Assembly (NCBI GenBank): GCA_963697795.1
Contig: OY969097.1
Location: 3,138,972-3,202,971 of the forward strand
Source: an uncultured Solirubrobacteraceae bacterium
Lineage (GTDB): Bacteria; Actinomycetota; Thermoleophilia; Solirubrobacterales; Solirubrobacteraceae
Reading direction: 5' to 3'
DNA: 64,000 nt
A program made the position numbers and the translations under genes. Positions 5,413 through 64,000 of this stretch are shown piece by piece (position 1 is the first letter of the stretch; each line of letters opens with the position of its first letter). The notes under the pieces are model-generated. The model saw nothing but the letters and a program-made list of their open reading frames with translations. It was not told the origin of the DNA and did not search any database.

Positions 5413-5485
5413 TACACCAGGCGGGGCTCGAACCCGCATCAACGGCCGCTAAAGCCGCCCCATTGGCCATTTATGGTACTGGTGC
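5413..5485 (-). tRNA. 73-nt class-I tRNA with anticodon UAG (Leu-type) but no long variable arm; atypical/orphan
   Basis: Hand-folded from the reverse complement: GCACCAG TA CCAT AAATGGCCA ATGG G GCGGC TTTAGCG GCCGT TGAT GCGGG TTCGAGC CCCGC CTGGTGT A. U8, A14, G18G19 and the T-loop are canonical. G1-U72 is a wobble pair and A73 is the discriminator. Position 37 is C, which is unusual. No CCA is encoded. Confidence 0.75.
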
Positions 5486-5692
5486 GCGTCACAACCAATC
5501 GTGGGGTGGATTCTCGCCAGTCGGGCGGGGAATTGCCACCCATATTTCCGTTAAATTTGGGAATCGCCGCATTCCACGGGACATCCGGAAAGCGAGGATC
5601 GTCGAGATGCAACTCCGTGTCTCCTACAGGGCTCGGCCCGGCGCCGCCCGGGGCGCATTTCGGAGAATTTGTTTTCTACTCACATGATTTTC

Positions 5693-5721
5693 TTGTCACT
5701 CGCACGCTGAGACGCTAGCCT
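5693..5721 (+). promoter_or_regulatory. putative sigma-70-type promoter for ArgRS-like paralog 1
   Basis: TTGTCA (5693-5698), a 17-nt spacer, then TAGCCT (5716-5721, TAnnnT). It lies about 30 nt upstream of ATG 5753 in an AT-richer intergenic stretch. Pattern match only. Confidence 0.3.
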
Positions 5722-5752
5722 CGGCGAAGTCCGGGGGAGCGGTGTGTGAGCT

Positions 5753-7423
5753 ATGAACCTCTTCGATCATCTGGAGGCAGTGGCGGCGGGCGGGGCCTCA
5801 CCCCCGTGGTGGTCGGCGCGGTCGCTGAGCGAGCCCCACCCCGAGTTCGACGCGAAGCTGATCTCCCGCGTGGACTGCTGGCAGGACAAGCGCCGCGCCC
5901 GCGAGGCACTGGAACGGGTCGAGCAGAACCCCGCCGTCGAGCGCCTGCGGCCGGAAGGACGGGAAGTGTGGGTGCGCCTGAGTGAGAGCCTGCTGGAAGG
6001 GCTGGGGGAGCGCTTCGAGGACCCTTCCGCCGGCCTGCCCGACAACGGCGACCTGCTGGCGGGCAGGCGCTTCGTCGTGAACTTCTGGTGCGCCAACGCG
6101 ACCAAGGCCCTGCACGTCGGGCACCTGCGAAACCTCGCCGTGGGCAACGGCCTGGCCGGCGTCTTCAGGGAGTCGGGAGCGGAGGTCGAGCGTCACAGCC
6201 TGATCTGCGACGTCGGGCGCAGCATGGGGGAGGCGATGGCGGGGGTCGCCCGCAGCGGCCCGCAGGCAGGCCCGGAGCTGGAGAAGCCCGACCACTTCGT
6301 CGGGCGCTGCTACCTGGACTACCTGCGGGCCACAGCCGAGCGCGTCACCCCCGACGTCGGCTCGCGCGAGATCGCGAGGGGGGAGATGGAGGAGCAGGAC
6401 GGGGCGGACGACCTGACGCTGCGGCTGCTGGCCGGCGACCCGGCGGCCAGGGAGCTGTGGCTGGCGACCCGCTCGTGGGTGATGGAGGGCCAGGAAGAGA
6501 CGCTCGGCCGCCTGGGCGTGGACTTCGAGCGCGTCTACTACGAGTCCGACTACCTGGCCAGGATGCGCGAGCTGGAGCAGGCCGGCCTGCGCGCGGGGGT
6601 TCTGCGTCGTGACGGCGACGGCGTCGTCGTCTACCCGACGGGGCTCAGCGAGCTGGAGGAGATGCCGCTGGTCCGCAGCGACGGCGTGCCGACCCAGCAC
6701 ATGCGCTCCCTGGCCTTCTGGATCGACCCACCGGATCTCGAGGGAGCCCTCTCGATTCAGGTCTCGGGCGCCGAGTGGGTCTCACACGTCGCCTGCCGGC
6801 GCAGGCTGGCGGCTGCCCTCGGCGCCGACGGCAGGGCCGTCGCGACCAAACCCACCCACGACGTCTTCCACGGCATGGTCGCCGTCGAGAAGCGGGCCAT
6901 GGCCTCCAGCGTGGAAGGGGCCCTGCTGATCGACGACATCCTCGACTGGCTGGACGCCCAGATCGACAGCGACGAACACGCCAAGCGAGTGCTGGAGTCG
7001 CACCCCTGCCCCGAGCGCGTCCCCGCGCAGGTCGCCCTGGCCTGCTTTTCCCTGCGGCAGGTCGGCAAGACCGTCGACTTCGACCCCTTGTCGCTGCTGG
7101 ACGTCTCGCGCAGCCCCGGCTGGGCCCTGGCGTGCGCCCGTGCCGGCAGCGGGCGTCCCGTCGGGGAGGCGGACCTGCGCGCGGCCACGGGCGACCCCGA
7201 CTACCGCTACGCGCTTGTGCAGTCGGAGATGTACCGCCGTCACCTGCTGCGGACGATCGGGACGCGCGACCTGGAGATGCTGGCCCGCTACGCCTTCCGG
7301 CTGGCGGGCTGGTATCTGCGCGAACCGAGGGCGGCCACGGTCGAGCGTGTCGTGGGGGCGACGCTCGGCCAGGCCGCCCGCGGGCTGGGTCTGGAACCCG
7401 CGCAGGCGGAGCGGGTCGGCTGA
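5753..7423 (+). CDS. arginyl-tRNA-synthetase-like class-I aaRS paralog 1 (specificity unknown)
   Basis: 556 aa. The HIGH region FWCANATKALHVGHLRNLAVGNGLAG...CDVGRSMGEAMAG aligns by eye with ArgRS ([21 protein letters not shown]...HVGDWGTQFG). The KMSKS position is degenerate (KRAMASS). The C-terminal DALR-like helical region contains RYAFRLAGWY. About 60-65% identical by eye to the paralog at 51755..53419. Confidence 0.8.
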   Translation: MNLFDHLEAVAAGGASPPWWSARSLSEPHPEFDAKLISRVDCWQDKRRAREALERVEQNPAVERLRPEGREVWVRLSESLLEGLGERFEDPSAGLPDNGDLLAGRRFVVNFWCANATKALHVGHLRNLAVGNGLAGVFRESGAEVERHSLICDVGRSMGEAMAGVARSGPQAGPELEKPDHFVGRCYLDYLRATAERVTPDVGSREIARGEMEEQDGADDLTLRLLAGDPAARELWLATRSWVMEGQEETLGRLGVDFERVYYESDYLARMRELEQAGLRAGVLRRDGDGVVVYPTGLSELEEMPLVRSDGVPTQHMRSLAFWIDPPDLEGALSIQVSGAEWVSHVACRRRLAAALGADGRAVATKPTHDVFHGMVAVEKRAMASSVEGALLIDDILDWLDAQIDSDEHAKRVLESHPCPERVPAQVALACFSLRQVGKTVDFDPLSLLDVSRSPGWALACARAGSGRPVGEADLRAATGDPDYRYALVQSEMYRRHLLRTIGTRDLEMLARYAFRLAGWYLREPRAATVERVVGATLGQAARGLGLEPAQAERVG

Positions 7424-7427
7424 GCCC

Positions 7428-8381
7428 ATGGCCGAGATGGTCGCGATCGAGCAGCGCCCCGTCGGCAGAGACGCGGCGCCGTGGGTGCGCGAACGGGGCC
7501 TCTTCACGCTCGGCCACGAGAACGACAGGCGCATCGCCGAGCTGCGCAAGGGCCTTCTAGGGCACCGGCGGGTGCGCATCGAGGCAGCCCAGGCGCACGA
7601 CGACGAGGTCGAGGGGGTCCTGGACCGCCTGCACGAGCCCGACTACCTGGCGGCGATCCGCTCCGTGGCGAGCGACAGGCCGGTCGTGCTGGAGACCGTG
7701 GCTGCACCCGGGACGATGCCCGACATCCCCGTCAACGCCGGGCTCGTGGCGGCCGCGCACGAGGGCATCAGGGTCTCGATCACGGCCGCCAGGCGCCTGC
7801 TGGCCGGCGCCCGCTACACCTACGCCCTGTGCAGGCCGCCCGGCCATCACGCCGGGCCCGCCTGGTGCGGCGGCTACTGCTATCTGAACAACGCGGCCGC
7901 GGCGGCGCAGGTGCTCGGCGAGGCCGGCCTCACCGGCGTCGCGCTAGTCGACCTCGACCTGCACTACGGCAACGGCACGGCCGCGATCGTCGCGGGGATG
8001 CCGAGCACGGCGATGTGGTCGCTGCACGAGCAGCGCAACGGCACACCGCCGCCCGAGCCCTTCAGCCCACGCGAGCACCAGATCGCCTTCACGAGCGTCC
8101 CCAGCGCCGAGGACTACCTGCGGGCCCTCGCCGGAGCCATCGCCGAGTTCCCCTCCGACACGCAGGCCGTCGTCGTCTCGCTCGGCTACGACACGGTCGT
8201 CGGGGACCCTCACGGCGCCTGGCGCTTCCCGCCGGGCATCTTCGCCAGCATCGGGCGGCTGCTCAGAGAGACCGGCCTGCCGCTGTGCATCGTTCAGGAG
8301 GGCGGATACGCGCTGCGGGCGCTGGCACCCTGCAGCCGGGCTTTCGCCGGCGGACTGCTCGACGATGATCCGCTCCAGTGA
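7428..8381 (+). CDS. histone-deacetylase-family (arginase/deacetylase fold) amidohydrolase
   Basis: Catalytic motifs LCRPPGHHAG and VDLDLHYGNGT are present, plus a C-terminal QEGGY. The start is 5 nt after the paralog-1 stop. Confidence 0.8.
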   Translation: MAEMVAIEQRPVGRDAAPWVRERGLFTLGHENDRRIAELRKGLLGHRRVRIEAAQAHDDEVEGVLDRLHEPDYLAAIRSVASDRPVVLETVAAPGTMPDIPVNAGLVAAAHEGIRVSITAARRLLAGARYTYALCRPPGHHAGPAWCGGYCYLNNAAAAAQVLGEAGLTGVALVDLDLHYGNGTAAIVAGMPSTAMWSLHEQRNGTPPPEPFSPREHQIAFTSVPSAEDYLRALAGAIAEFPSDTQAVVVSLGYDTVVGDPHGAWRFPPGIFASIGRLLRETGLPLCIVQEGGYALRALAPCSRAFAGGLLDDDPLQ

Positions 8382-9669
8382 CCTGCTCGTAGTCGGAGCG
8401 GGAGCCAAGGCGGCCGCGCTCGCCGCCAAGGTTCACGCCCTTAACACGCTCGGCGTCGCCTCGCTGAGCATGACTATCGTCGAGGCCGTCGAGCCGGCCG
8501 CCTCCTGGCTGGGACTGGGCGGTGCCACCTCCGGCGCGGAGCCCCTGGCCCAGGCACCCGTCAAGGACGTCGGTTTCCCCTACCAGAGCCGGCGCAGCTT
8601 CGACGGCTACGGCGAGGCGATCGACGGTCACGTCCTCTCCCTCTCCTGGCAGTCCTACCTGATCCACGAAGGCCGTTACGCCCGCTGGGTCGACGCGGGC
8701 TCCCCCACCGTCACGCACGGCGACTACGGCCGCTACCTGGCCTGGGTCCTCTCCAGGGCCACCGCCGGCGTGCGCCTGGAGCGAGGACGCGCCGAGCGGG
8801 TCCTGCTCGAACCGGACGACGAGCACTGGGAGGTCGAGGTGGGGGAGGACACGTTCACGGCACGAGCGCTCGTCCTGACGGGACCGGGCGTCCAGGCCCC
8901 GCTTCCCCACGACGAGGCGGTCGCCTCGCGCATCCTGCACAGCGGAGGGCCCCGCGCCCGCTTCACGGTCATCCCCGAGACGCCCTGCTGCGAGGTGGCG
9001 ATCGTCGGCGGCGGCGACAGCGCCATCGCCTGCGTGGCCTACGTGCTGGCGCTGCGCCCGCGGGTGCGCCTGACGATCTACACGCCCGAGCTCCCGGCCG
9101 GCCGCGGCGAGAGCTTCCTGGAGAACCGCGTCTTCTCGACACCGGACGAGGTCGCCTGGAGCAGCCTCGGCCTCGAGCAGCGCCGGACCTTCGTGCGCCG
9201 CGGCGACAGGGGCGTGTTCGACCCCCTGGCCCTCTCGGAGATCGCCTTCGACGACCGCTGCACGTTCGTGCGCGGCCGCGTCACCCGGCTCGTCGCGGCG
9301 GCGGACGGCCGGGGTGTCGCCGTGGAGCACACCGGCGGCCCGCCGGGCACCCACGACTTCGTCGTCAACTGCACCGGCGCGGACATGCGCCTGCAGATCG
9401 AGGAGCTGCTGGGGCGGGACGTGCGCCGAGAGGTGGCCCGCCGGATCGGGGTCGACTGGGAGACGGCGATCGGGCCCGACGCCCACTTCGGGTACGCGCT
9501 GGAGATCCCCGGCCTCGCCCCGGCTTTGCACGTCCCAGCCCTGGCGGCCCTCAGCCAGGGCCCAGGCTTCGCCAACCTCGGCTGCCTGGGCATGCTCGCG
9601 AACAGGGTGCTGGAGCCGCTCGTGAAGAGCTCGCGGCGCGCGGCCGCCAAGCTCGTGCAGGTCCGCTAG
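8365..9669 (+). CDS. FAD/NAD(P)-binding oxidoreductase (possibly N-hydroxylating flavin monooxygenase-like)
   Basis: N-terminal dinucleotide motif LLVVGAGAKAAA and a second motif VAIVGGGDSAIA indicate a two-Rossmann flavoprotein architecture. It overlaps the deacetylase gene by 17 nt. The monooxygenase subfamily guess is weak. Confidence 0.6.
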   Translation: MIRSSDLLVVGAGAKAAALAAKVHALNTLGVASLSMTIVEAVEPAASWLGLGGATSGAEPLAQAPVKDVGFPYQSRRSFDGYGEAIDGHVLSLSWQSYLIHEGRYARWVDAGSPTVTHGDYGRYLAWVLSRATAGVRLERGRAERVLLEPDDEHWEVEVGEDTFTARALVLTGPGVQAPLPHDEAVASRILHSGGPRARFTVIPETPCCEVAIVGGGDSAIACVAYVLALRPRVRLTIYTPELPAGRGESFLENRVFSTPDEVAWSSLGLEQRRTFVRRGDRGVFDPLALSEIAFDDRCTFVRGRVTRLVAAADGRGVAVEHTGGPPGTHDFVVNCTGADMRLQIEELLGRDVRREVARRIGVDWETAIGPDAHFGYALEIPGLAPALHVPALAALSQGPGFANLGCLGMLANRVLEPLVKSSRRAAAKLVQVR

Positions 9670-12578
<2,909 letters not shown>

Positions 12579-15427: not shown

Positions 15428-17044
15428 ATGACTTCCGCCCGGCGTGCCAAGGATCGGCGGACGGCCAGGGCCCATCAGGCCGCATCGGCACGCTCGAGTC
15501 GGACCCCGCCCCTCCCCGGCATGTCGCGCGGGGCGCTGCTTGGGGTGGGCGGGGTCGCGGTGGTCGTCGTCGCGGCGGTCGTATTGATCTTGGTCTTGGG
15601 CAGCTCGACGGCCAAGTCCCACCATCTGACGGGCAGCGCCTACCCGAACGTCGACACTTCCAACACCAGGGACGTGGGCGGGCCGATCAGCTCCACGAAC
15701 GTGAGCACGCTGCATCAGGCCTGGGCGCTGCCGGTCACGGGCAAGGGCGAATACGGCACCTACGCGGCCACGCCGGTCCTCAGCAAAGGCGTCGTCTACT
15801 CCCAGGATTTGGCCTCCAACGTGCAGGCGATCTCGCTGCGGACGGGAAAGGTCCTGTGGTCGACGCCCTACAACGCGCCCAGTCACGGCCCCAACGGCGT
15901 CGTCGTGGCCGAAGGACGCGTGTACGGGACGACCCCGACAGATGCGTTTGCCCTTGAACAGAGCACGGGCAGGCAGCTGTGGAAGGTTCACCTGACGGGA
16001 GGGGAAACGCCCGGTATAGACATGGCCCCGGGCTTCCACGACGGGATCGTCTACGTCTCGACGGTCCCAGGCGACCAGCACGAACCGGCGGCGGGCGAAA
16101 ACGTCGGCACTCTGTATGCCTTGAGGGCCTCCAACGGCGAAAAGCTGTGGAAGTTCCAAACAGTTCCCGAAGACACCTGGTCCAATGGCCAGGTCAACTG
16201 GGGCGGGGGCGTGTGGTACACGCCGGCCTTCGACGAACACGGCTTCATGTACTTCGGCGTCGCCAATCCGGAGCCGGCGCCAGGGACCCCCGAACAGCCG
16301 TGGGCGGCGAGCCGTCCGGGCCCGGACCTCTACACGGACTCGCTGATCAAGATGAACGCTCGCACCGGGAAGCTCGTGTGGTACTACCAGCTGACCCCGC
16401 ACGACGTCTACGACTGGGATCTGCAGGATCCCCCGATCCTGCTCGACAGCAACGGCACGCCGATGGTCGTCACGGCCGGCAAGGCGGGCACGGTGATCGC
16501 TCTGAACCGCGAAACGGGCAAGTTGATCTGGCGCCGTGACGTGGGCATCCACGACGGCCACGATCTCGACTCGCTTTACGCGATGAAACACGAATACTCG
16601 AAGCTGACACTGCCCGAGGTCGTCTACCCGGGTCGGCTCGGGGGCGTGATCGCCCCGATGGCCACGAACGGCACGACCGTGTTCGCGCCGGTCGTCAACC
16701 TGGCGCAGGAAATATCCTCCAGCTTCACCGTCACCGAAAAGCAGCTGGACGGCGAACTGGTGGCGCTCGACGTGGCGACGGGCAAGGTGCTGTGGACGCA
16801 CAAGTTCGCTACGCCCGCGTTCAGCGGCGTGACGGTCGTCAACGACCTGGTCTTCACCGAGGACTTCGAAGGGACCGCCTACGCCTTCGACGCGAAGACG
16901 GGCAAGGTCATGTGGGAAAGCAGCCTTCCGGCGGGGACCAACGCGGGCGTGGCTGTCGAAGGGAATACCGTCCTTGCTCCTGCGGGACTGCAGACCGCAG
17001 CGGGGCAGGAAACGGCGCTCACGGCGTACAGGCTGGGCGGCTGA
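15428..17044 (+). CDS. membrane-anchored PQQ-like beta-propeller repeat protein (quinoprotein-dehydrogenase-like)
   Basis: N-terminal basic segment plus a TM helix (LLGVGGVAVVVVAAVVLILVLG), then repeated G.LW/ W motifs (GKVLWST, GRQLWKV, GEKLWKF, GKLVWYYQ, GKLIWRR, GKVLWTH, GKVMWES) typical of PQQ propellers. Confidence 0.65.
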   Translation: MTSARRAKDRRTARAHQAASARSSRTPPLPGMSRGALLGVGGVAVVVVAAVVLILVLGSSTAKSHHLTGSAYPNVDTSNTRDVGGPISSTNVSTLHQAWALPVTGKGEYGTYAATPVLSKGVVYSQDLASNVQAISLRTGKVLWSTPYNAPSHGPNGVVVAEGRVYGTTPTDAFALEQSTGRQLWKVHLTGGETPGIDMAPGFHDGIVYVSTVPGDQHEPAAGENVGTLYALRASNGEKLWKFQTVPEDTWSNGQVNWGGGVWYTPAFDEHGFMYFGVANPEPAPGTPEQPWAASRPGPDLYTDSLIKMNARTGKLVWYYQLTPHDVYDWDLQDPPILLDSNGTPMVVTAGKAGTVIALNRETGKLIWRRDVGIHDGHDLDSLYAMKHEYSKLTLPEVVYPGRLGGVIAPMATNGTTVFAPVVNLAQEISSSFTVTEKQLDGELVALDVATGKVLWTHKFATPAFSGVTVVNDLVFTEDFEGTAYAFDAKTGKVMWESSLPAGTNAGVAVEGNTVLAPAGLQTAAGQETALTAYRLGG

Positions 17045-17397: not shown

Positions 17398-17800
17398 ATG
17401 ACCGAGCGCGGCGGTGTCGCTTCGCAAGCGTCGGCCGAGGTCAACGACCGCGCGCTCCCCGGGCACTGGGAGGGAGGTCTCCCCGCGGGAGCGGCCAACA
17501 CACATATCGCGACGCTCGCCAAGCGCCACTCGCGGCTCGTGGCGCTCGTCCGCGTTGAGGGCAAGGACACGCAATCGGTGCACGGAGCCTTAACTCGCCA
17601 GATTGGTGCTCGGCCCGTTCAGACGGCAGGTCCCTGACATGGGACCGGGAACCGAGCTCGCGTCTGATGCGCAGTGCACGTCGCGACGGACCTGCGGGTT
17701 TACTCTATGACCCTCGGAGCCCGTGGCGGCGGGGCTCAAAAGGGGGTCCCCCGCATTTAAGCGGAGGACCCCACAACTCACGTCAGACGCATCGTCCAAC
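17398..17800 (+). pseudogene. IS30-family transposase remnant (DDE region, frameshifted and truncated)
   Basis: Across two frames I read ALPGHWEGGLPAGAANTHIATLAKRHSRLVALVRVEGKDTQSVHGAL, then SLTWDRGTELA, then LLYDPRSPWRRGS. This matches the IS30 Tnp pattern HWEGDL..SHIATLVDR.SR...GKDS.SV..AL...SLTWDRGMELA...VYFCDP.SPWQRG. It has no intact ORF and no N-terminal half. Confidence 0.6.
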
Positions 17801-17813
17801 GCGTGTCAGCGAA

Positions 17814-18743
17814 TCAGAATTTTTCGCTGGCGATCACGTTCGTCGCTTCGGCGGACCAGAGCGTCCCGTTCAGGATGGCCGTGTTGTGGCCGGCTGCTGC
17901 AGGAAGTCCGATTTTGCCGTTGACGATCGGGTCGATGATGAAGGAGAAGAATTCGCCGCAGCCCGACGCTTCAGGTGCGGAGAAGGAGTTGTCCACCAGG
18001 GAGTTTTCAGACACCTTGGTGAGTTCGTAGCCTTTTTCTTCTTCTTCCGAAATGGTGCCGCGTTTGCCTTTGATCGGTTTGTTCGGCGAAGGCGGTTTGG
18101 TTTCGCCGGTCGTCAGGTTCAGCGTGACCGGGCTGCCTTCGGACCCGATGTAGCAGGAGTTCCCGAGCAGCGGGTTTTTGAGGTGCACCCGCACCGGCAG
18201 CTTCAGCGCCGTGCCTTCGCTGAACGCGAGGTTCGAAAGGTTGAGCACCGCTGGGTCTTTTTCGTTGGCGACGAGTTCAGTCGTCGCCGTGACGCCGGTG
18301 GAGTTCGGGTTTTCGAACGTCGCTTTGCAGAGGCCGCGGATCGCTTTTTCGAACAGGCCTTCGCCTTTGATTTCTTCGCAGTTGACGAAATTGAGAAGCC
18401 CGCCCGGAACATTCAGTTCCGTTTTTGACAGGCTTTCGCCGTTCTTGGCAGGCACCAAATAGTATTCGTTCAGGTGCACGCCGGTCGGAATGCCGCCGCC
18501 TTGCAAGGTCACCGTCTGGTTGATCGGGACTTTCGTCGTACCGACGACGAATTCCCCACCTGTCGTCTGTGCGTACTGACACAGAGACACGCCCGGCACT
18601 TCTGTCGGGCACTGCGCAAAGCGCGCGAAGATGCCTTTGGGCGTGGCGGCGGCGGTGCCGGCAGCGGCCAGCGAAACCGCAATCGCCAGCACCGCGGCGA
18701 ACATGGCGCCGCGTACGCCCCTAAGACGCCTGCTTTTGCTCAT
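17814..18743 (-). CDS. secreted protein of unknown function (cassette protein A)
   Basis: Signal peptide MSKSRRLRGVRGAMFAAVLAIAVSLAAAGTAAA, then TPKGIFARFAQCPTEVPGVSLC. Paralog at 33969..34907. Start chosen at the second ATG by analogy with the paralog. No recognisable domain. Confidence 0.7.
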   Translation of the reverse strand: MSKSRRLRGVRGAMFAAVLAIAVSLAAAGTAAATPKGIFARFAQCPTEVPGVSLCQYAQTTGGEFVVGTTKVPINQTVTLQGGGIPTGVHLNEYYLVPAKNGESLSKTELNVPGGLLNFVNCEEIKGEGLFEKAIRGLCKATFENPNSTGVTATTELVANEKDPAVLNLSNLAFSEGTALKLPVRVHLKNPLLGNSCYIGSEGSPVTLNLTTGETKPPSPNKPIKGKRGTISEEEEKGYELTKVSENSLVDNSFSAPEASGCGEFFSFIIDPIVNGKIGLPAAAGHNTAILNGTLWSAEATNVIASEKF

Positions 18744-19088
18744 CTGTATTCCCACTTTCTAATCGAGATTAGAGCCAGTGATTACGCAGGCAGAGCCTGC
18801 ATCGTCAAGCTAACGACGGGGCGCGGAAGCTCGCAAGGATTGTTTCCAATCCCAGGCGTGAGGCGTCCTCGGGCGGAGCTCCATCGTCAATCGCTGTTTC
18901 TGACTTCGCCGCCGTCCTTCGCGTGGCGAGGGTCCGCGCACGAAGGACAGCCGTGTAGAGATATGCCGGGGCGCCAAGGCAGCGCGATAGGGCGCGGCAT
19001 GACCCGGTAGGCTGAGCCCGATGCGACGCTCGCTCTGCATGACCGGGCACCCGTTAGAGCGATCCACGAGGGAACAGGGAGTAGAGGC

Positions 19089-22000
19089 ATGAGCAGCGAC
19101 AGGGGTAAGAGGATTGTGGTTGTTTGTGTTTTGGTGGTTGTGTGGTGTTGTGTGTGGTGTGGGGTGGTGTGGGGTTTTCGTGGGCATGAACGGGTTGCTG
19201 GTGGTGTGTTTGGGGTTTCTGGGTCTGGGGTGTTGGAGTTGGATGAACCGGTGGGTGTGGCGGTGGATGAAGGGTCGGGTGTGGTGTATGTGGTGGATCG
19301 TGCTGGTGGTCGGGTTGAGGTGTTTGATGGTGTGGCGGGGGATATTGGTGAGTTGGTTGGTAGGGGTTTGGCGTCTGGTGAATTTGATGGTAGTGGGTTG
19401 TTGGGTGAAGGGGTGGAGGCTGGTGGTGGTGGGTTAGCGGGTGAAGTGGTGACGGGTCGGTTTGTGGATCCGTCGGGGGTGGCGGTTGATAATGGGTGTC
19501 GTGATCATCGTCCTGAACCGTTGTCGGGTGCGGCGTGTGAAGCGTTTGATCCTTCGAATGGTGATGTGTATGTGTTGGATTCGGGTCATGAGGTGGTGGA
19601 TAAGTACACGGCGTTGGGGCGTTATGTGGGTCAGATCAACGCGGGAACGTTGGGTGTGGAAGAACATGTTCGGCTTGAAGGTGTTGCGGTTGAAGGTGAT
19701 GGGGATGTTCTGGTGAGCACGCAGACCACGGTGGAGGCGTTGAGGACGTCTGAGGAAGGTGTGTTCCGGTTGTCTGATGGTGTGCGGAATGTGGTGTTGG
19801 GGTCTGGTGTGCCGACGGGGTTTACGGCGGCGGCGCAGTTAGGGTTTGTTGAAGGTGGGTTGGGTGCGGCGGGTGGTCGGGTGTTTGTGCCGCAGGGGTT
19901 TGCGGAAAAGGATGTGGCGGTCTATAGTTTGGCGGGGGGTTTTGTTGAAGAATTGGGTACGGGGCATGTTGTGGGGTTGGTGGGTGAGGTGTGTACGGGG
20001 GATGTGTATGTGGATGTGCGTGAAGCTGGTGTGGTGAGGCGGTTTGGGGTTGGTGGGGGGTTGGTTGAAGAATTGGTTGCTGGTGGTGGTGGTGGGGTTG
20101 GTGTTGATTGTGTTGGGTCGGGGGGGACGGTGTTTGTGGCGTTACCGTCTGGTGGGGTTGTGGCGGTGTATGGGCCTGAAGCGCCGAAAGCTCCTTTGGT
20201 GTCGGGGTTGGCGGTGTCGGGTGTGACCGCGGGGTCGGTGCGGTTTAGTGCGGAAGTTGATCCGCGTAGTGAAGTGGGTGAAGCGGCGACTGAGTTTGTG
20301 GTGGAATATGGGTTATGTCCGGCGGTGGGGTCGTGTGAAGGTGTGGGGTTTGAACAGGAACGTTCGTTGACGGGTAGTGTGGGTGCGGTGTTTGAAGGTG
20401 TGGTTGTGTCGCGTGAAGTGTCTGGGTTGGTGGCGGGGGGCCGGTATCATTTCCGGGTTGGTGCTCGGAATTCGCATAGTGTTGGTGGTTTGTCTGGTGA
20501 ATATTCGTATGGTGTGGGGGAAGATGCTGAACGGGTGTTCGTGATGGAGGGTTTGTCGTCTGGTGGTGGGGCGGGGTTGTTGGATGGGCGTGGTTGGGAA
20601 CTTGTGTCGCCGGTGGATAAGAATGGTGCGCTGGTTTTGCCGGTGCTTGAAACGGGGTTGATTGAGGCGGCGGCGGGGGGTGGGGCGTTTACGTATTTGG
20701 CTTCGACGGCGACTGAAGCCGGGGCGTTGGGTAATTCGAATAAGATGCAGGTGTTGGCGCGGCGGGGGTCGGGTGGTTGGGCGTCGTGTGATGTGGGGTT
20801 GCCGAATGGTGAAGCGACGGGCGTGTCGGTTGGGCAGGGGCAGGAGTATCAGGGGTTCAGCGCGGATTTGGGGACGGGTTTGGCGCGGCCGTTGGGGCGG
20901 GTCGTGCGGGGTCTTGTGGGTGGGGAGCGGGAAGTGAGCCCGTTGCTGGTGGGGTTCTCGGGGGCGTGCGGGGCGGGGGGGCTGTCTTATGATGCGTTGT
21001 TGTCGGGGTGTCCGTTGACGGGTGAATGTGAAGCTGTGGTGCGGGAACACGCGGATGTCGAACCGGGCATCGAAGTTGCCGAGGAAGGTTTGTGCGCGCA
21101 TGAAGTGCCGTTTTGTGATGGGGAACCGTTAGCGGCTAATGAATCGTTGTCGGGGGTGGTGTTGCGTTCGATGACGCCGTTGGTCGCGGGCGCGCCGGTG
21201 GAAGCGTTGTATGAGCCTTATGGTGGGCGGGTGTATCCGGTCAGTGTGAGACCGAACGGGACGGTGGTGGGTACTGTCGCGCATGAGCCGGTGGCGGGGA
21301 CGCAGGCGCACGGCAACGCGTTGCGTGGTGTGGTCTCAGCGGATGGTTCGCGGGTGGTGTGGTCAGAAGAAGTGCCGAATGGGCATTTGTTTGTGTGGGA
21401 TCGTGGGTTGGAACGGAGTGTGCAGGTTGATGTGGTGCAGGCGGGTGGGTCGGGGACAGGGCCTGTTGGGGCTGTTTTCCAGTACATGACCGGGGATGGG
21501 TCGAGGGTGTTTTTCACGGATACGCAGCAGTTGACGGCGGGGTCTGGTGCTGAAAATGATTCGCCGGATTTGTATGTGTGTGAAGTGGTGGTGGAAGGTT
21601 CGTCGGGGAAGTGTGTTGTGAGGGATTTGACGCCGATGGTGGGTGGGCAGCATGCGGATGTGTTGGGGCAGGTGATCGGCGGCTCGGAATCGGGCGGGTT
21701 AGTGTATTTCGTAGCGAATGGTGAGTTGACGAAAACACCGTCCGCGTCGGGAGAAGAACCGGTCGCGGGAGGGTGCGGGTTGGAATCGTCGCCGGGGAAG
21801 TTGTGTGATTTGTATGTGTGGAGTGAAGGTGCCGCGGAACCGGTGTTGGTGGGTGTGCTGTCGGGTGAAGACGTGGATGATTGGGGTGGCGGTAGCGAGC
21901 AGTTGACGAATTTGACGGGGCGGGTCGCGGGTGGGGGTGAATGGTTGGTGTTTATGTCGGATCGGTCGTTGACGGGTTATGACACGCGGGATGCGGTCGT

Positions 22001-22850
22001 TTCGGGGGTGCGTGATGAGGAGGTGTATGAGTACAGGTTCGGGGGCGGGTTGGTGTGTGTGTCGTGTGATCCGTCTGGTGAACGGCCGCATGGGGTGGAA
22101 TACGCGAAGTTGAACGAAGGTGCGGCGGCGGGTACTGGCGTGTGGCCGGAAGGGGCACGGCTGGCGGGGTTTGTGCCTAGTTGGACTCCTTACCGGAAGC
22201 AAGGGGCGTTTTATCAGTCGAGGTTTTTGGGTGGGTCGGGGCGGGTGTTTTTTGATTCGTCTGATGGTTTGGTGGCTGGTGATAGTGATGGTGTGGTTGA
22301 TGTGTATGAGTTTGAGCCGGTTGGGGTGGGTTCGTGTCGGGTGGGTGGTGTGGGGTTCGTGGCGGTTGATGATGGTTGTTTGGGGTTGGTGTCGTCGGGT
22401 GAAAGTGGTCAGGAATCAGGGTTTTTGGATGCGTCTGAATCTGGTGATGAAGTGTTCTTTTTGACTACTTCTCGGTTGTCGGGGCGTGATAGGGACACGG
22501 CGTATGATGTGTATGATGCGCGTGTGGGTGGCGGGGAACCCGTGCTGTCGGGGGTTGGTGTGTGTGGGGGTGGGTTTTGTCAGGAACCGGCTGGGGAACC
22601 GTCGGCTCCGGTGGCGGGGTCGGAGGGGTTTGAAGGGCCGGGTAGTCCGTTGGTGGAAGCGATCGTGCCGCCGGTGAAGGTGTTGACGCGGGCGCAGAAG
22701 TTGAAGGCCGCGTTGAAGGCGTGTGGTAGGGATCGTGTGAAGCGTAAGCGGGTGGTGTGTGAACGTGGTGCGCGTAGGCGGTATGGGCCGGTGAAGAAGA
22801 AGAAGGGTGTGCGAGGGGCGTCTGTGGTGCGGGTTGGGGGGCGAGGCTGA
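19089..22850 (+). CDS. large V/G-rich membrane-anchored or secreted repeat protein, NHL-like and PD40/TolB-like beta-propeller repeats (cassette protein B)
   Basis: 1253 codons. Hydrophobic N-terminus (VVVCVLVVVWCCVWCGVVW). NHL-like motifs are PVGVAVDEGSGVVYVVDRAGGRVEVFD and PSGVAVD...NGDVYVLDSGHEVVDKY. PD40-like motifs are SADGSRVVWSE, GDGSRVFFTD, GGLVYFVANG, GEWLVFMSDRS, SGRVFFDSSD and GDEVFFLTTS. The C-terminal tail is basic. The ORF is far longer than the 60-120-codon chance ORFs in the other frames of this stop-poor region. Confidence 0.75.
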   Translation: MSSDRGKRIVVVCVLVVVWCCVWCGVVWGFRGHERVAGGVFGVSGSGVLELDEPVGVAVDEGSGVVYVVDRAGGRVEVFDGVAGDIGELVGRGLASGEFDGSGLLGEGVEAGGGGLAGEVVTGRFVDPSGVAVDNGCRDHRPEPLSGAACEAFDPSNGDVYVLDSGHEVVDKYTALGRYVGQINAGTLGVEEHVRLEGVAVEGDGDVLVSTQTTVEALRTSEEGVFRLSDGVRNVVLGSGVPTGFTAAAQLGFVEGGLGAAGGRVFVPQGFAEKDVAVYSLAGGFVEELGTGHVVGLVGEVCTGDVYVDVREAGVVRRFGVGGGLVEELVAGGGGGVGVDCVGSGGTVFVALPSGGVVAVYGPEAPKAPLVSGLAVSGVTAGSVRFSAEVDPRSEVGEAATEFVVEYGLCPAVGSCEGVGFEQERSLTGSVGAVFEGVVVSREVSGLVAGGRYHFRVGARNSHSVGGLSGEYSYGVGEDAERVFVMEGLSSGGGAGLLDGRGWELVSPVDKNGALVLPVLETGLIEAAAGGGAFTYLASTATEAGALGNSNKMQVLARRGSGGWASCDVGLPNGEATGVSVGQGQEYQGFSADLGTGLARPLGRVVRGLVGGEREVSPLLVGFSGACGAGGLSYDALLSGCPLTGECEAVVREHADVEPGIEVAEEGLCAHEVPFCDGEPLAANESLSGVVLRSMTPLVAGAPVEALYEPYGGRVYPVSVRPNGTVVGTVAHEPVAGTQAHGNALRGVVSADGSRVVWSEEVPNGHLFVWDRGLERSVQVDVVQAGGSGTGPVGAVFQYMTGDGSRVFFTDTQQLTAGSGAENDSPDLYVCEVVVEGSSGKCVVRDLTPMVGGQHADVLGQVIGGSESGGLVYFVANGELTKTPSASGEEPVAGGCGLESSPGKLCDLYVWSEGAAEPVLVGVLSGEDVDDWGGGSEQLTNLTGRVAGGGEWLVFMSDRSLTGYDTRDAVVSGVRDEEVYEYRFGGGLVCVSCDPSGERPHGVEYAKLNEGAAAGTGVWPEGARLAGFVPSWTPYRKQGAFYQSRFLGGSGRVFFDSSDGLVAGDSDGVVDVYEFEPVGVGSCRVGGVGFVAVDDGCLGLVSSGESGQESGFLDASESGDEVFFLTTSRLSGRDRDTAYDVYDARVGGGEPVLSGVGVCGGGFCQEPAGEPSAPVAGSEGFEGPGSPLVEAIVPPVKVLTRAQKLKAALKACGRDRVKRKRVVCERGARRRYGPVKKKKGVRGASVVRVGGRG

Positions 22851-25800
22851 TGCTCGCGGGACTGTCAGCGGGTAGTGAGGGTGGCGTGAGGTGTGGTGTT
22901 GGTGGTGTGGTTGTGTGGCGTGTTGTGGTGTTGGTGGTGTGTGTGGTGGTGTTGGGGTTGTGTGTGGGGGTTGGTGTTGGTTGGGGTGCGGGTGGTTCGG
23001 TGGGTTGGTGGCGGTTGGGTGTTGGTGCGAGGCCGGTGGTGTTGGGTGTTGGTAGTGAAGGTGAGGTTGTGGGGTTTGCTGAGAATGTTGGGTATGGTCC
23101 GGTTGATGGTGGGATTGTGCCGGTGAGGGTTGGGATGGTGTTGCCGGCTGGGTTGAGGGCGGTTGGCGTGGCTGGTGCGGTCCCGTTTGCGAATACTCAG
23201 ACGGTGGTGCCGGGTTGTAAAGTGCTGGCGGGTGGTGGGGAAGTGTTGTGTGAATTTGAAGGTGGGTTGCCTGCTTTTGACGGGATCGAAGTGCGGGTGA
23301 AGGTGGATGTTGAAAGTGTGGTGTCGGGGAAGGTTGGGTTGGTGGTGTCGGGTGGGGAAGTGTCGGGAGCGGAAGTGCAGCGCGGAGTGAGGGTGGGGTC
23401 TGAAGAACCGGCGTTTGGGGTTGAAGAATTCGGGTTGGCGTTGGAAGAAGCTGGTGGCGGCCCGGTGTCGCAGGCGGGCGCGCATCCGTTTCAGATGACG
23501 GCGTCGGTTGCGGTGAATTCGGGGCCTGATCCGGGTTCGCTTGCGGAAAAGCCCGGGCAGCAGCCGGTGGTGTTGCCGAAGGATATTGTGACGGGGTTGC
23601 CGGCGGGTTTGGTGGGTGACCCGAACGGGGTGCCGACGTGCAGTCTCGCTGATTTTTTGCGGATCGTGAATAATGTGGATTTGTGTACGGCCGCGACGCA
23701 GGTTGGGGTTGTGTCCACGACCGCGAATGTGAAGAGCGCGATCGGGTCCGCGACGTTCGTGTTGCCGTTGTTCAATCTCGAACGTGGTCCGGGGGAGCCG
23801 GCACGGTTCGGGTTCATGATCCCTGAAGACAAACTGCCGGTCGTGCTTGACCCGCAGTTGCGTGATGAAAAGGGCGGGGATTATGGGATCGATGTGCACG
23901 CGAGCGATTTGTCCCAGACGGGTGGTGTGACGTCCGCGAGGGTGACGGTGTGGGGTGCTCCGGGTGATCCGCGTCATGATGCGGAGCGTGGCTGGTCTTG
24001 TATTTATGTGTTGAACGGTACGCCGCCGCCGAGCCCGTGCGAGATCCCCGAAGGCGAAAGCAATACGGCGTTCTTGCGGTTGCCGACGCAGTGCGAAACG
24101 CTGCCGGAATTCACGTTGCGGGCGGACTCGTGGGATAAACCGGGCGAGTTTCTGTCGTTCACGCCTGATGAACCGTTGCCGTTGTTCACGGGTTGTAACC
24201 GGTTGCAGTTCGCGCCGAGCGTGAGCGTGCTGCCGTCGACGAGCACGGCCGGGGCCGCGTCGGGTTTGGATGTGACCGTGGAAGACCACAACGAAGGGTT
24301 GACGGCCGGGGAAGGCCGCTCGCAGTCGGATGTGAAGGACACCACGATCACGCTGCCGGAAGGCATGACGGTCAACCCGTCCGCGGGCAACGGGCTGGGC
24401 GCATGCTCCCAGGAACAGTTCGAAGACGAAACGCTTGAGCGTCAGGAATGTCCGGCTGACTCGCAGATCGGGGAACTGGAAGTAGAAACCCCGCTTTTGA
24501 ACAAGGTGTTGCACGGGGCGGTGTATGTCGCTGAACCGTATGGCAACCAGTTCCACTCGTTGCTCGCGATGTTCTTCGTGGTCAAGGACCCCGAAACCGG
24601 GGTACTGGTCCGGATCCCCGGAGAAGTCCAGGCCAACGAAACGACAGGGCAGCTGACAAGCACGATCAAGGACCTGCCCCAGCTGCCGTTCTCACGCGTC
24701 AGCGTGCACCTGCGCGAAGGACCCCTGGCACCGTTGATCACCCCGCCCGGATGCACCAGCGAAGCGCAGACCACCGGTGCGCTGATCCCGTGGGCCAACC
24801 CGCAGAGCAGCACCCCGGTATCCACGAGCTTCCAGATCAACAACTGCCCCGGCAGCCCGTTCACCCCCGGCCTGACCGCGGGGACCGAGAGCAACAGCGC
24901 GGGCTCGTTCAGCCCGCTCGTCCTGCGCCTGACGCGGAGTGACCGCGAAAACGAAATCTCGACGATCACGACCAGCCTGCCCGGCGGGCTCAGCGCCGAT
25001 CTGAACGGTGTGCAGTTCTGCAGCCAGGCACAGATCGAAAACGCGCGGGCCGTCAGCGGCCTTCAAGAGAAAAACATGCCCTCCTGCCCGGCGGGCAGCC
25101 AACTCGGAGAAACGCTCGTCGGCAGCGGTGTCGGTGCCAGCCTGACCTACGTGCCCGGGAAAATCTATTTCGCAGGCCCCTACCGTGGCGCACCATTCTC
25201 GCTGGTCAGCATCACCCCCGCAGTCGTCGGCCCGTTCGACCTCGGAGATGTCGTGCTCAGATTCGCTTTGCAGATCAACCCCGAAACCTCCGCGGCGACA
25301 GTCGAACCGACCCCCGGAGAACCATTGCCCCGGATCATCAAGGGCATCGTCACGCACGCCCGCGATATCCGCGTGATGATCACCCGGGCCGGGTTCACGC
25401 TGAACCCAACCAACTGCAACCCCACCCAGATCACCACCACGATCACAAGCACCCAAAACCAGACCAGCACCCCCACGGCCCGCTACCAGGCAGCCAACTG
25501 TCCAGGCCTGAAATTCGCGACCAAACTCACCGCCAGCACCCAAGGCCAAACCTCCCGCGCCAACGGCGCAAGCCTGACCGTGCACGTCAGCCAACCCAGC
25601 CTCCCCCTCGGCACCTTCACAAACCTCAAATCCGTAAAGACCGAAATCCCCAGAAGCCTCCCCGCACGCCTTGAAACCCTCAAAAAATCCTGCCCAGCCC
25701 CCACCTTCAACACCAACCCCGCCGGCTGCCCCAGCACAGCCATCGTCGGCCACGTAACCGCGAACAGCCCACTCGTCCCCGAACCCCTCCAAGGCCCCGC

Positions 25801-26146
25801 CTACCTCGTAAGCCACGCCGGCGAAGAACTCCCCAACGTCATCTTCGTCCTGCAAGGCTACGGCATCACCATCCACGCCACCAGCACCACCCACATCCAC
25901 AACGGCATCACCACCAGCACCTTCAACACCCTCCCCGACCAACCCCTCACCAACCTCACCGCAACCTTCCCCGAGCAACGCTACAGCCTCCTCGGCACCA
26001 TCTACAACCTCTGCACCCTCCCCAAAACCCAACTCACCATGCCCACCACCCTCACCGCCCAAAACGGCACCCAAACCCACCAAAACACCACCATCACCCC
26101 CACCAACTGCCCCAAACACCACACCAAAACCAAACACAAACACTAA
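22850..26146 (+). CDS. large membrane-anchored protein of unknown function with T/P/N/H/K-rich C-terminus (cassette protein C)
   Basis: 1098 codons. The start ATG overlaps the B stop (TGATG). N-terminal TM helix VVVWRVVVLVVCVVVLGLCVGVGVGW. Many conserved Cys. The tail is ...TITPTNCPKHHTKTKHKH. Nucleotide composition flips from G+T-rich to C+A-rich inside this ORF. Confidence 0.75.
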   Translation: MLAGLSAGSEGGVRCGVGGVVVWRVVVLVVCVVVLGLCVGVGVGWGAGGSVGWWRLGVGARPVVLGVGSEGEVVGFAENVGYGPVDGGIVPVRVGMVLPAGLRAVGVAGAVPFANTQTVVPGCKVLAGGGEVLCEFEGGLPAFDGIEVRVKVDVESVVSGKVGLVVSGGEVSGAEVQRGVRVGSEEPAFGVEEFGLALEEAGGGPVSQAGAHPFQMTASVAVNSGPDPGSLAEKPGQQPVVLPKDIVTGLPAGLVGDPNGVPTCSLADFLRIVNNVDLCTAATQVGVVSTTANVKSAIGSATFVLPLFNLERGPGEPARFGFMIPEDKLPVVLDPQLRDEKGGDYGIDVHASDLSQTGGVTSARVTVWGAPGDPRHDAERGWSCIYVLNGTPPPSPCEIPEGESNTAFLRLPTQCETLPEFTLRADSWDKPGEFLSFTPDEPLPLFTGCNRLQFAPSVSVLPSTSTAGAASGLDVTVEDHNEGLTAGEGRSQSDVKDTTITLPEGMTVNPSAGNGLGACSQEQFEDETLERQECPADSQIGELEVETPLLNKVLHGAVYVAEPYGNQFHSLLAMFFVVKDPETGVLVRIPGEVQANETTGQLTSTIKDLPQLPFSRVSVHLREGPLAPLITPPGCTSEAQTTGALIPWANPQSSTPVSTSFQINNCPGSPFTPGLTAGTESNSAGSFSPLVLRLTRSDRENEISTITTSLPGGLSADLNGVQFCSQAQIENARAVSGLQEKNMPSCPAGSQLGETLVGSGVGASLTYVPGKIYFAGPYRGAPFSLVSITPAVVGPFDLGDVVLRFALQINPETSAATVEPTPGEPLPRIIKGIVTHARDIRVMITRAGFTLNPTNCNPTQITTTITSTQNQTSTPTARYQAANCPGLKFATKLTASTQGQTSRANGASLTVHVSQPSLPLGTFTNLKSVKTEIPRSLPARLETLKKSCPAPTFNTNPAGCPSTAIVGHVTANSPLVPEPLQGPAYLVSHAGEELPNVIFVLQGYGITIHATSTTHIHNGITTSTFNTLPDQPLTNLTATFPEQRYSLLGTIYNLCTLPKTQLTMPTTLTAQNGTQTHQNTTITPTNCPKHHTKTKHKH

Positions 26147-26544
26147 AACCACCCAACCACACCCCCACCAGCAACCCGCCAACCACACCTCCACCAGCAA
26201 CCCGCCACCCCCCCGCCAACCCACCCCTCACAAAGCACAGCACCGCGCCGAGTCGCGAGGTCCTGTGGGCGTCCGGTAACGAACACGGCAGCCCAGTATC
26301 TACCCCGTCCTGGTGGTTGTGGTGGTCGTTCCGGAAGTGGGGGAACGATGCTCGCGAACCCGTGTAATCAAAAACACGGCCTGTGGTGGGAGACAAACCC
26401 GTCAAACGCTTGACCGGCCCGCAGCACCTCGGGCACACTGACAGGGTCCTAAACACTCCTCCCCGTCTTGACCAAGCAACACCAACAACCGGTCAAGCAC
26501 ACAACCAGGGAGGAGGAAAACCAAAGCAAGGGAGCAAGGACCCA

Positions 26545-27258: not shown

Positions 27259-27286
27259 CCACACCGCAACACAACACAAGCAGAAA

Positions 27287-27315
27287 GGTGGGGCCGCCTC
27301 CAAGGCGGCCCCACC
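27287..27315 (+). terminator. GC-rich intergenic stem-loop after D1
   Basis: GGTGGGGCCGCC-TCCAA-GGCGGCCCCACC, a perfect 12-bp stem with no U-tract. The same element follows D2 and both D1/D2 homologs in copy 2. Confidence 0.4.
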
Positions 27316-27475
27316 ACACTCCACACCAAAAAGAGAACAGCCAGACCTTAGAGAACCTCACACCACGCACACGACACAAACCAGACACAAAACGCAGGGC
27401 ATGTGGGGACCAACAACACAGCGGGCATCGACCCGTCCGTGCCCAACAACAACAGTCCACACAGAGGAGCCCACA

Positions 27476-63388: not shown

Positions 63389-64000
<612 letters not shown>

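Follow-up and report, generated by a model that had tools for sequence, protein, structure and literature searches.

A diverged ArgRS-like synthetase with its own tRNA(UAG) in a Solirubrobacteraceae genome: a putative part of a tRNA-dependent specialised pathway

The DNA analysed here, a stretch of 64,000 nt with a high GC content (the window) from contig OY969097.1 of an uncultured Solirubrobacteraceae bacterium, contains at 5413-9669 a gene for a tRNA with the anticodon UAG, named tRNA(UAG), and, divergent from it, a gene encoding a paralog of arginyl-tRNA synthetase (ArgRS), named P1, which is followed by genes for a deacetylase and a flavoenzyme. Based on our observations, we suggest that P1 and tRNA(UAG) constitute a functional, probably orthogonal, non-arginine pair, which serves tRNA-dependent specialised metabolism and not general translation. 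We hold this reading with moderate confidence, and with the same confidence regard the P1 system as functioning within a tRNA-dependent pathway that is widespread. The elements of the module are:

5413-5485, minus strand: tRNA(UAG), of the kind named type II below, 73 nt, class-I shape (ARAGORN and Rfam)
5693-5721, plus strand: promoter-like sequence TTGTCA-17 nt-TAGCCT in the 267-nt divergent spacer
5753-7423, plus strand: P1, a synthetase paralog with a predicted ArgRS fold and a putative non-arginine substrate, 556 aa (Pfam PF00750, 34.6 bits)
7428-8381, plus strand: Zn-dependent deacetylase of the HDAC/acetylpolyamine-amidohydrolase type (HDAC), 317 aa (PF00850, 151 bits; cut-off 27.9)
8365-9669, plus strand: putative flavin-dependent amine N-hydroxylase, NbtG-like, 434 aa (PF13434, 38 bits; cut-off 21)

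Properties of tRNA(UAG) and P1

The initial annotation of this DNA had described a 73-nt class-I tRNA on the minus strand (5485-5413), and both ARAGORN and Rfam call it. Its acceptor stem is GCACCAG/CUGGUGU, with a G1·U72 wobble and the discriminator A73, as read from the sequence; positions 8-9 are UA and position 26 is G. The D arm is CCAU-AAAUGGCCA-AUGG, with C at position 20, and the anticodon arm GCGGC-UUUAGCG-GCCGU contains U32, the anticodon U34 A35 G36, C37 and G38. The variable loop is UGAU and the T arm GCGGG-UUCGAGC-CCCGC. The anticodon loop (TTTAGCG in DNA), C37 and the G1-U72 pair had all been reported correctly. So had the resemblance to a second tRNA, tRNA(UAA), at 53 kb: direct reading of both sequences confirms the same 5' acceptor strand (GCACCAG), U8-A9, variable loop (TGAT in DNA) and T loop (UUCGAGC). 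The Rfam tRNA model (RF00005, gathering score 29) gives tRNA(UAG) 52.3 bits and tRNA(UAA) 70.1 bits.

The cloverleaf of tRNA(UAG) is backed by covariation, not by thermodynamics. In an alignment of 34 distinct related tRNAs, 98.9% of the cells are paired and 9 pairs are compensatory, which none of 500 shuffles matched; the folding energy of the single sequence is uninformative (z = -0.77). U32 and G38 can pair, which would shrink the anticodon loop to 5 nt. None of the 155 related tRNA genes encodes CCA, and in 154 of them A73 is followed by T (U in the RNA).

The tRNA(UAG) and P1 genes are divergent and 267 nt apart, in agreement with the roughly 265 bp first given. The promoter-like sequence noted in this spacer exists, and the 85% identical ortholog from locus L001 (L-numbers are labels of the fetched loci) conserves its hexamers, as TTGTGA/TAGTCT, while the sequence between them has diverged; however, the consensus promoter scan called no promoter-like site, TTGTCA-17-TAGCCT included. 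The terminator scan placed sites only inside P1 or upstream of it. A T-box or other leader RNA in the spacer was considered and rejected, as an Rfam search of the 267 nt found no element.

P1 resembles ArgRS in its predicted fold, but is far from it in sequence. It is 16-22% identical to canonical ArgRS and scores 89.2 bits against the argS equivalog hidden Markov model TIGR00456 (cut-off 261.65) and 71 against NF002446 (cut-off 399). Pfam covers only a part of the ArgRS catalytic domain, with no match to the DALR or N-terminal domains. The HIGH motif is intact (HVGH, residues 121-124). An AlphaFold (AF2) model built from 61 homologs (pLDDT 84.6, pTM 0.87) points to the three-domain ArgRS fold: the top 20 Foldseek matches are all ArgRS (TM-score 0.54-0.75, 12-22% identity), led by 1f7u_A with a TMq of 0.75 over about 610 columns. 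The next structural neighbours, CysRS, MshC and MetRS, all have TM-scores below 0.5. Both the N-terminal and the C-terminal tRNA-binding domains are present, with many invariant residues, and P1 retains all residues that are invariant in the family. Its clade carries 29 specific substitutions at columns that are at least 90% conserved, among them R248E, K249E, R287D, H516R and R519G/S, several of which remove basic residues. The second ArgRS-like protein of the window, P2 (51.7-53.4 kb), is 43% identical to P1, well below the 60-65% that had been estimated by eye.

In a profile alignment with yeast ArgRS (1bs2), which is of low identity (16-22%), the acids that bind the guanidinium group, E148 and D351, correspond to N110 and S319 of P1, Y347 to Q315 and Q375 to W342. 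The position aligned with D351 is S, A, C, T or G throughout the superfamily. The usual ArgRS identity elements of a tRNA are C35 and A20. Since P1 misses the argS cut-off, its guanidinium-binding acids appear replaced (by N and S) and tRNA(UAG) has A35 and C20, the pair is, as judged from sequence, not an arginine system by the usual rules. The initial annotation had drawn the same conclusion for both tRNAs of the window, and the P1 score (89 versus 262 bits) and the loss of the acids speak for it.

The origin of these tRNAs may be traced through distant relatives of P1. An exhaustive search returned 173 representative clusters at E <= 1e-30, with many full-length relatives of 30-40% identity. 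Their genes have as neighbours a methyltransferase with an ATP-grasp protein, a PRMT-like methyltransferase, a second class-I aminoacyl-tRNA synthetase (aaRS)-like gene or, in L172, an overlapping N-monooxygenase gene. The tRNA encoded in loci L174 and L175 (73 nt) shares its acceptor and T arms with those of the window, but has the anticodon UCU, C35 and A20. Because of this combination of shared arms with retained UCU, C35 and A20, the sequences indicate that the private tRNAs descend from tRNA-Arg(UCU), and that the Solirubrobacterales tRNAs have lost both ArgRS identity elements, C35 and A20. In L174 the tRNA (7903-7975) precedes a 35%-identical ArgRS-like gene, followed by a methyltransferase gene and an ATP-grasp-like gene (L174:8001-11751); this arrangement is likely to be of the ancestral type.

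Atypical tRNA-like RNAs accompany other distant relatives. L170 encodes on the plus strand (2234-2293), about 30 nt upstream of the ArgRS-like gene, a 60-nt tRNA-like RNA without a D arm and with the loop CUUUUAA (36.1 bits), and L171 carries on the minus strand (10844-10899) a partial tRNA with the loop CUUCUAA (37.7 bits). Both loci, whose ArgRS-like proteins are 36-39% identical to P1, also encode a second class-I aaRS-like protein of about 650 aa with an Anticodon_1 domain.

Recurrence of the module and its counterpart at 48-55 kb

The four-part unit of tRNA(UAG/C37), ArgRS-like gene, HDAC and N-hydroxylase recurs in four lineages, as follows (identities are to P1):

Window module: 100%, between ilvC and serC
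L001-3 / L090 module: 85%, between ilvC and serC
L004 module: 60%, between ilvC and serC, with a PQQ gene directly after the N-hydroxylase gene
L176 module: 42-44%, directly after an rRNA operon

The loop UUUAGCG, with U32, C37 and G38, and C20 are found in all four lineages; G1·U72 is confined to the window, L001-3/L090 and L004. Because the same loop recurs in four lineages, we named the unit a distinct type II module. The L176 genome is close to that of the window (the 5' part of its 16S is 98.7% identical), and a JGI metagenome search for orthologs of the P1 module gave one further 85% copy only. With every other lineage, P1, HDAC and N-hydroxylase each share 48-57% identity, and in a simple neighbor-joining tree of the synthetases the P1 clade lies outside all others on the longest branch. 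These distances led us to reject a recent intragenomic duplication of the 53-kb module. The initial proposal of a duplicated and diverged synthetase/tRNA pair thus holds insofar as a second, diverged pair with a different anticodon is present, but this pair is not a recent duplicate.

The ratios of nonsynonymous to synonymous substitution rates (dN/dS) are 0.17-0.31 for P1, 0.26-0.29 for HDAC and 0.30-0.39 for the N-hydroxylase. When the window is compared with the L001 genome, dN/dS of P1 is 0.17 and its identity 85%, compared with 73% for P2. The short module is thus under purifying selection, and we judge with moderate confidence, from sequence comparison, that it is functional and distinct. 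The expectation that deacetylase and flavoprotein would be conserved together with P1 is borne out by the same recurrent unit.

Two observations concern the surroundings of L176. There (L176:1-13195), the type II module follows an rRNA operon whose 16S has an expanded region with a LAGLIDADG open reading frame (ORF) and whose 23S contains a group I intron. The right end of the window (61780-64000), with a TyrRS-like gene followed by 16S, is syntenic with the start of the L176 locus, and therefore a further module could lie just beyond the window.

The two enzymes encoded after P1 were recognisable. The HDAC gene starts with ATG at 7428, 4 nt (not 5 nt, as first stated) after the P1 stop codon at 7421-7423. 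The proposed family assignment is well founded: besides the PF00850 match, the motifs PPGHHA, DLDLHYGNGT, GYD and EGGY align to HDAC6, and the catalytic set (His-His pair, Asp-His-Asp zinc site and catalytic Tyr) is intact. The nearest relatives in the PDB are HDAC6 and APAH. The next gene overlaps that of HDAC by 17 nt, as reported. Its product, originally described as an FAD/NAD(P) oxidoreductase, is indeed a flavoprotein, and may be assigned more specifically as a relative of the lysine N6-monooxygenase NbtG (PDB 4d7e), which it matches over its full length (E = 8e-62, residues 6-424). A ZMP/ZTP riboswitch (9676-9758, 58.7 bits) starts 7 nt past the N-hydroxylase stop codon and precedes a serC-like aminotransferase gene and serA; no terminator-like site lies between it and the P1 operon.

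Both enzymes have a place in a larger and widespread cluster. At 90% clustering the ArgRS-like family comprises more than 2000 members, and its 457 matches in GTDB species genomes come nearly all from metagenome-assembled genomes of Solirubrobacterales. In about 150 fetched loci, whose ORFs were called with tblastn and a heuristic based on GC content at third codon positions (GC3), the conserved order is tRNA, ArgRS-like gene, PabAB, GNAT, HDAC, chorismate mutase, P450, N-hydroxylase and PQQ propeller. The Solirubrobacteraceae variant has the N-hydroxylase and P450 genes moved upstream and an additional 196-aa protein. In essentially every locus a tRNA of 72-76 nt lies 20-110 nt upstream of the synthetase gene on the same strand, and across the family the acceptor stem, A73 and the T arm of these tRNAs are almost invariant. 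The anticodons associated with 171 synthetase genes are UAA (86), UGU (74) and UAG (6). In 51 loci (e.g. L123:4934-5833), the tRNA is immediately preceded, in the same orientation, by an alpha/beta-hydrolase gene, whose product is a candidate for releasing or transferring the tRNA ester.

Synthetase residues tracking UAA versus UGU were sought and rejected, as the best discriminating columns follow phylogeny, not the anticodon, at nested switches. The mainstream enzyme is thus probably blind to positions 35 and 36, and the idea that paralogs and tRNAs might co-vary across genomes (anticodon versus synthetase residues) is not upheld for UAA and UGU.

The window contains a second, reduced module of this kind:

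53452-53525, minus strand: type I tRNA(UAA), with A37 and G1-C72, 33 nt upstream of P2 (ARAGORN, Rfam)
51755-53419, minus strand: ArgRS-like paralog 2 (P2), 554 aa, nested in the Solirubrobacteraceae UAA clade
49599-51764, minus strand: fused PabA-PabB aminodeoxychorismate (ADC) synthase (Pfam Chorismate_bind 294 bits, GATase 151 bits)
49111-49602, minus strand: GNAT N-acetyltransferase, neighbour of HDAC in canonical clusters
48821-49108, minus strand: type II chorismate mutase, PapB-like (PF01817, 72.6 bits)
48234-48824, minus strand: 196-aa conserved protein, present in 13 loci
53731-55092, plus strand: cytochrome P450 (PF00067, 175 bits), divergent from tRNA(UAA)
15428-17044, plus strand, outside this module: PQQ-type beta-propeller with an N-terminal anchor (tblastn, 56% to the L005 cluster gene; Pfam and NCBIfam matches)

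Compared with its nearest full relatives, the 53-kb module is without exactly HDAC, which normally lies between GNAT and chorismate mutase, and the N-hydroxylase. The sole HDAC and the sole N-hydroxylase of the window are those of the P1 module. As the P1 module holds exactly the two enzymes missing at 53 kb, the two modules look like halves of one pathway. Its enzymes are therefore not a different set of tailoring enzymes, as had been assumed, but those by which the 53-kb module falls short of the nine-part cluster. The suggestion that the deacetylase belongs with the acetyltransferase of the other module gains from this analysis, since GNAT and HDAC genes are adjacent in about 150 related clusters. 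The same layout occurs on the L001 metagenomic contig, where a reduced 53-kb-type module (L086) lies about 40 kb from a P1-type module. No further HDAC of this family was found on the 3.2-Mb contig or in the genomes with reduced modules among the best 120 matches. The PQQ-propeller gene at 15428-17044 is, from its similarity, a possible loose member of the P1 module; such a gene is the last of the canonical cluster and stands directly after the N-hydroxylase gene in L004.

For the 196-aa protein, which is conserved at the end of the Solirubrobacteraceae-type cluster, Pfam, NCBIfam and PDB gave no match, even at E = 10; its N-terminal TLGPSGT motif may resemble the N-termini of prephenate dehydratase/decarboxylase-type proteins. 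No recognisable gene for a PapC-type dehydrogenase was found alongside the PapA-like and PapB-like genes of the partner module. Beside this module, an ORF on the plus strand (47288-48157) contains a short collagen-like Gly-X-Y repeat (Pfam Collagen, below the cut-off).

The two synthetase modules are separated by repeated DNA. Two copies of a 12-13 kb segment (17800-30000 and 34000-47000), 16.1 kb apart and with some blocks 100% identical, have a GC content of 0.57-0.64, versus about 0.70 around them, and an extreme strand asymmetry (GC skew +0.5). Each copy has genes for giant Gly/Val-rich proteins (1253 and 1098 aa) and, in tandem, three units of 931 nt, each coding for a 262-aa secreted protein.

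A putative tRNA-dependent pathway and its alternatives

We propose the following course of events. The partner module would make an amino acid derived from 4-amino-4-deoxychorismate, most likely of the 4-aminophenylalanine type, which GNAT would N-acetylate. HDAC would strip the N-acetyl group placed by GNAT, and the NbtG-like flavoenzyme would N-hydroxylate the freed amine. P1, using ATP, would then esterify the resulting non-arginine, amine-bearing amino acid onto tRNA(UAG); alternatively, P1 might load a precursor, so that deacetylation and hydroxylation would happen on the tRNA. P2 would load an earlier form of the amino acid on tRNA(UAA). The aminoacyl ester would be an activated intermediate that enzymes can address, acting as a carrier or aminoacyl donor, and might be released, be passed to an acceptor, enter N-O/N-N chemistry or reach the ribosome.

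The two pairs could be kept apart by the differences between their tRNAs. The D loop is AAUCGGUNA in type I and AA(A/C)UGGC(C/U)A in type II, and the types also differ at positions 20, 32 and 36-38 and, in the window, at 1-72. Together with the 29 substitutions of the P1 clade, these differences would prevent cross-charging, and the pairs would therefore be orthogonal. ArgRS, unlike most synthetases, requires tRNA for amino-acid activation (PMC2034488); a ligase derived from ArgRS that switches its substrate must therefore retain a tRNA, here a private one.

Several points weigh against this proposal. The active-site mapping of P1 depends on an alignment of 16-22% identity, and the amino acid is deduced from neighbouring genes only. 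Many genomes carry a reduced 53-kb-type module with no close HDAC or type II module, so the two modules are not obligatorily coupled. L176 may conversely carry the short module alone, in which case the substrate could be lysine or ornithine and not an ADC product. No Fem-like double GNAT, CDPS, PEARL or LanB-like protein was recognised in the cluster, and the cluster GNAT is a single-domain, acetyl-CoA-type (PF00583-type) enzyme. Finally, the restriction to three rare-codon anticodons and the rarity of ACA where the tRNA has UGU (see below) suggest that the tRNA meets the ribosome.

The first alternative, which we consider unlikely, is that tRNA is a mere cofactor: P1 would need it only for activation, and the acyl group would pass to a small molecule, e.g. 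the hydroxylamine formed by the N-hydroxylase. By analogy with valanimycin (VlmL/VlmA/VlmH) and the MetRS-like hydrazine synthetases, the product might be an O-aminoacyl-hydroxylamine for N-O/N-N chemistry. ArgRS-like genes stand beside genes of lysine/ornithine N-monooxygenases also in L176 and in the 37%-identical L172, where the genes overlap, and other distant relatives, with their methyltransferase and ATP-grasp genes or a second aaRS-like gene, resemble small-molecule tailoring sets. Hydrazine synthetases join an aaRS-like domain with a lysine N-hydroxylase (PMC12376268), and MshC is among the structural neighbours of P1. However, P1 has kept both tRNA-binding domains with their many invariant residues, the whole tRNA and not just its acceptor helix is conserved with compensatory changes, and there is no cupin or Fem-like partner.

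Slightly less probable again, in our opinion, is natural code expansion or ambiguous decoding, in which the charged tRNAs would insert a non-canonical amino acid at rare CUA codons here and at UUA or ACA elsewhere. The clustering of synthetase, tRNA and amino-acid biosynthesis genes in about 150 loci, as in the pyl system, is in line with it, and the tRNAs keep the canonical L-shape toolkit (G18G19, UUCGAGC, U33 and a 7-nt loop), with A37 in the UAA and UGU types. The roughly 170 loci have only three anticodons, each with U34 and each corresponding to a rare A-ending codon. Codon usage points in the same direction: in comparisons that ignore kinship, ACA accounts for a median of 0.0107 of NNA codons in UGU loci, compared with 0.0259 in UAA loci (uncorrected Mann-Whitney p ~7e-10). 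It is 2.4-3 times rarer with UGU than with UAA tRNAs and is the most depleted NNA codon; the ratio of its relative synonymous codon usage (RSCU), UGU to UAA loci, is 0.32 for the cluster genes and 0.41 for the flanking ones (L006-L169). CTA, GTA, CCA and GCA are unchanged between these loci. RSCU of CTA is about two-fold lower in UAG genomes (0.04-0.05), few of which are independent, than elsewhere (0.07-0.12), and TTA has a frequency of about 0.1 per 1000 codons throughout.

Other observations speak against recoding. In the cluster genes of UAG-type genomes, CTA codons fall in leucine columns (n = 14; Leu in a median fraction of 0.96 of the other sequences). Where the tRNA is of the UGU type, ACA codons of the synthetase gene lie in a threonine column, and no column of the cluster genes was found to switch from TTA to ACA with the anticodon. 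With CTA, ACA and TTA all at Leu/Thr or variable columns, a recoding signature in these genes was rejected. UAA and UGU have been exchanged several times among close relatives, with no tracking change in the synthetase, which would re-target recoding each time. U34 would also read the abundant CUG, ACG and UUG codons, C37 and the pairable U32·G38 make tRNA(UAG) poor for decoding, and the codon contrasts disregard phylogeny, with TCA being lower too. We read these contrasts as selection that keeps a chargeable, ribosome-competent tRNA off commonly used codons; they also leave recoding alive as a hypothesis. Slightly less likely still is its boldest form: natural orthogonal pairs, derived from ArgRS/tRNA-Arg(UCU), might deliver pathway-made non-canonical amino acids (of the 4-aminophenylalanine type, perhaps N-hydroxylated) to the ribosome at the nearly unused codons UUA, ACA and CUA, with two pairs and two extra amino acids in this genome and the anticodon-matched codon depletion as the footprint. 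If true, it would be categorically new.

It is improbable that the P1 module is a decaying remnant of a second cluster copy, in which only HDAC and the flavoenzyme matter and P1 and its tRNA are redundant or inactive. Its gene order resembles the canonical cluster minus PabAB-GNAT and chorismate mutase-P450, the P1 branch is the longest in the tree, and tRNA(UAG) has a pyrimidine at position 37 and the lower Rfam score. Nevertheless, the low dN/dS of P1, its better conservation than that of P2, the retention of all family-invariant residues, the compensatory changes in the tRNA stems and an odd loop that is identical across lineages with proteins of 42-60% identity all argue otherwise. Very improbable, finally, is a housekeeping or antibiotic-resistant ArgRS, which public annotations of family members as 'arginyl-tRNA synthetase' and the modelled fold might suggest, because P1 is far below the argS equivalog cut-offs, seems to lack the arginine-binding acids (in a low-identity alignment), is one of two paralogs within 64 kb, each with a private tRNA devoid of C35 and A20, and belongs to a family whose gene sits in an ADC-pathway operon in about 150 loci.

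Significance and comparison with known systems

If P1 and tRNA(UAG) work as a non-arginine pair, this would be, to our knowledge, the first specialised pathway with its own tRNA and synthetase, pyrrolysine excepted, and one that occurs twice in this genome. A review of aminoacyl-tRNA-dependent enzymes from January 2026 covers only AcmF, SbzA, GNAT-fold enzymes, CDPS and PEARL, and contains no ArgRS-like enzyme and no pathway-encoded tRNA (PMC12945691). Our full-text literature search returned neither an account of an ArgRS-like enzyme that has a private tRNA nor one of this cluster. It would follow that tRNA can serve as a private carrier or activating handle in small-molecule chemistry, and its escape from the host set would be explained by the loss of C35 and A20 together with new acceptor and loop features. 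Genetic-code engineering would gain raw material in two naturally orthogonal class-I pairs and about 170 diverged clusters, and the link between anticodon and codon rarity would make the coexistence of non-translational or newly captured tRNAs with the ribosome testable. Hundreds of uncultured Solirubrobacterales from soil carry the cluster, which makes it likely that its product is of ecological importance.

The closest parallel in organisation is the pyl cassette (pylT-pylS-pylBCD), in which a diverged synthetase, its own unusual tRNA and amino-acid-making genes are likewise clustered and the pair likewise looks orthogonal. However, PylRS is a class II enzyme, whereas P1 is of class I and derived from ArgRS. 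In addition, tRNAPyl reads a stop codon, while the anticodons here match rare sense codons and change between lineages, no recoded target codon was found in the cluster genes and one genome carries two pairs.

GatCAB, SepRS/SepCysS, SelA and glutamyl-tRNA reductase act on an amino acid that is bound to tRNA, either modifying it or using it as an activated ester. These systems feed translation or haem synthesis and employ tRNAs with cognate anticodons; in contrast, the enzymes encoded by the cluster described here are HDAC, P450, GNAT and a flavin N-hydroxylase, and the anticodon bears no relation to the cargo. The PapA/PapB/PapC pathway makes p-aminophenylalanine in producers of chloramphenicol and pristinamycin. 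The partner module resembles it in combining ADC synthase and a type II chorismate mutase in one operon, and a later oxidation or hydroxylation of the amine is plausible. It differs in that no PapC was recognised and that a synthetase/tRNA pair replaces the adenylation-carrier didomain of a nonribosomal peptide synthetase.

Valanimycin biosynthesis uses an aminoacyl-tRNA outside translation, by means of the SerRS paralog VlmL, the Fem-like transferase VlmA and the amine N-hydroxylase VlmH (PMC12945691). It shares with our system a pathway-specific aaRS paralog beside a flavin amine N-hydroxylase. VlmL, however, charges ordinary tRNA-Ser, the pathway has a double-GNAT transferase that is missing here, and the aaRS family and substrate are different. 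Hydrazine synthetases, which combine a cupin with a MetRS-like domain and act on N6-hydroxylysine (PMC12376268), offer a further example of a class-I aaRS-derived ligase that is genetically coupled to a lysine/ornithine-type N-monooxygenase. They are tRNA-independent cupin fusions, in contrast to the full ArgRS architecture, dedicated tRNA and absence of a cupin observed here.

From canonical ArgRS and tRNA-Arg(UCU), the presumed ancestors, the pair differs in the low identity of P1 (16-22%), its failure against the equivalog models, the apparent loss of the arginine-binding acids and the presence of A35 and C20 in the tRNA. On the other hand, P1 still shares with ArgRS the HIGH motif and, as modelled, the fold and three-domain layout, and the tRNA of L174 still has UCU, C35 and A20.

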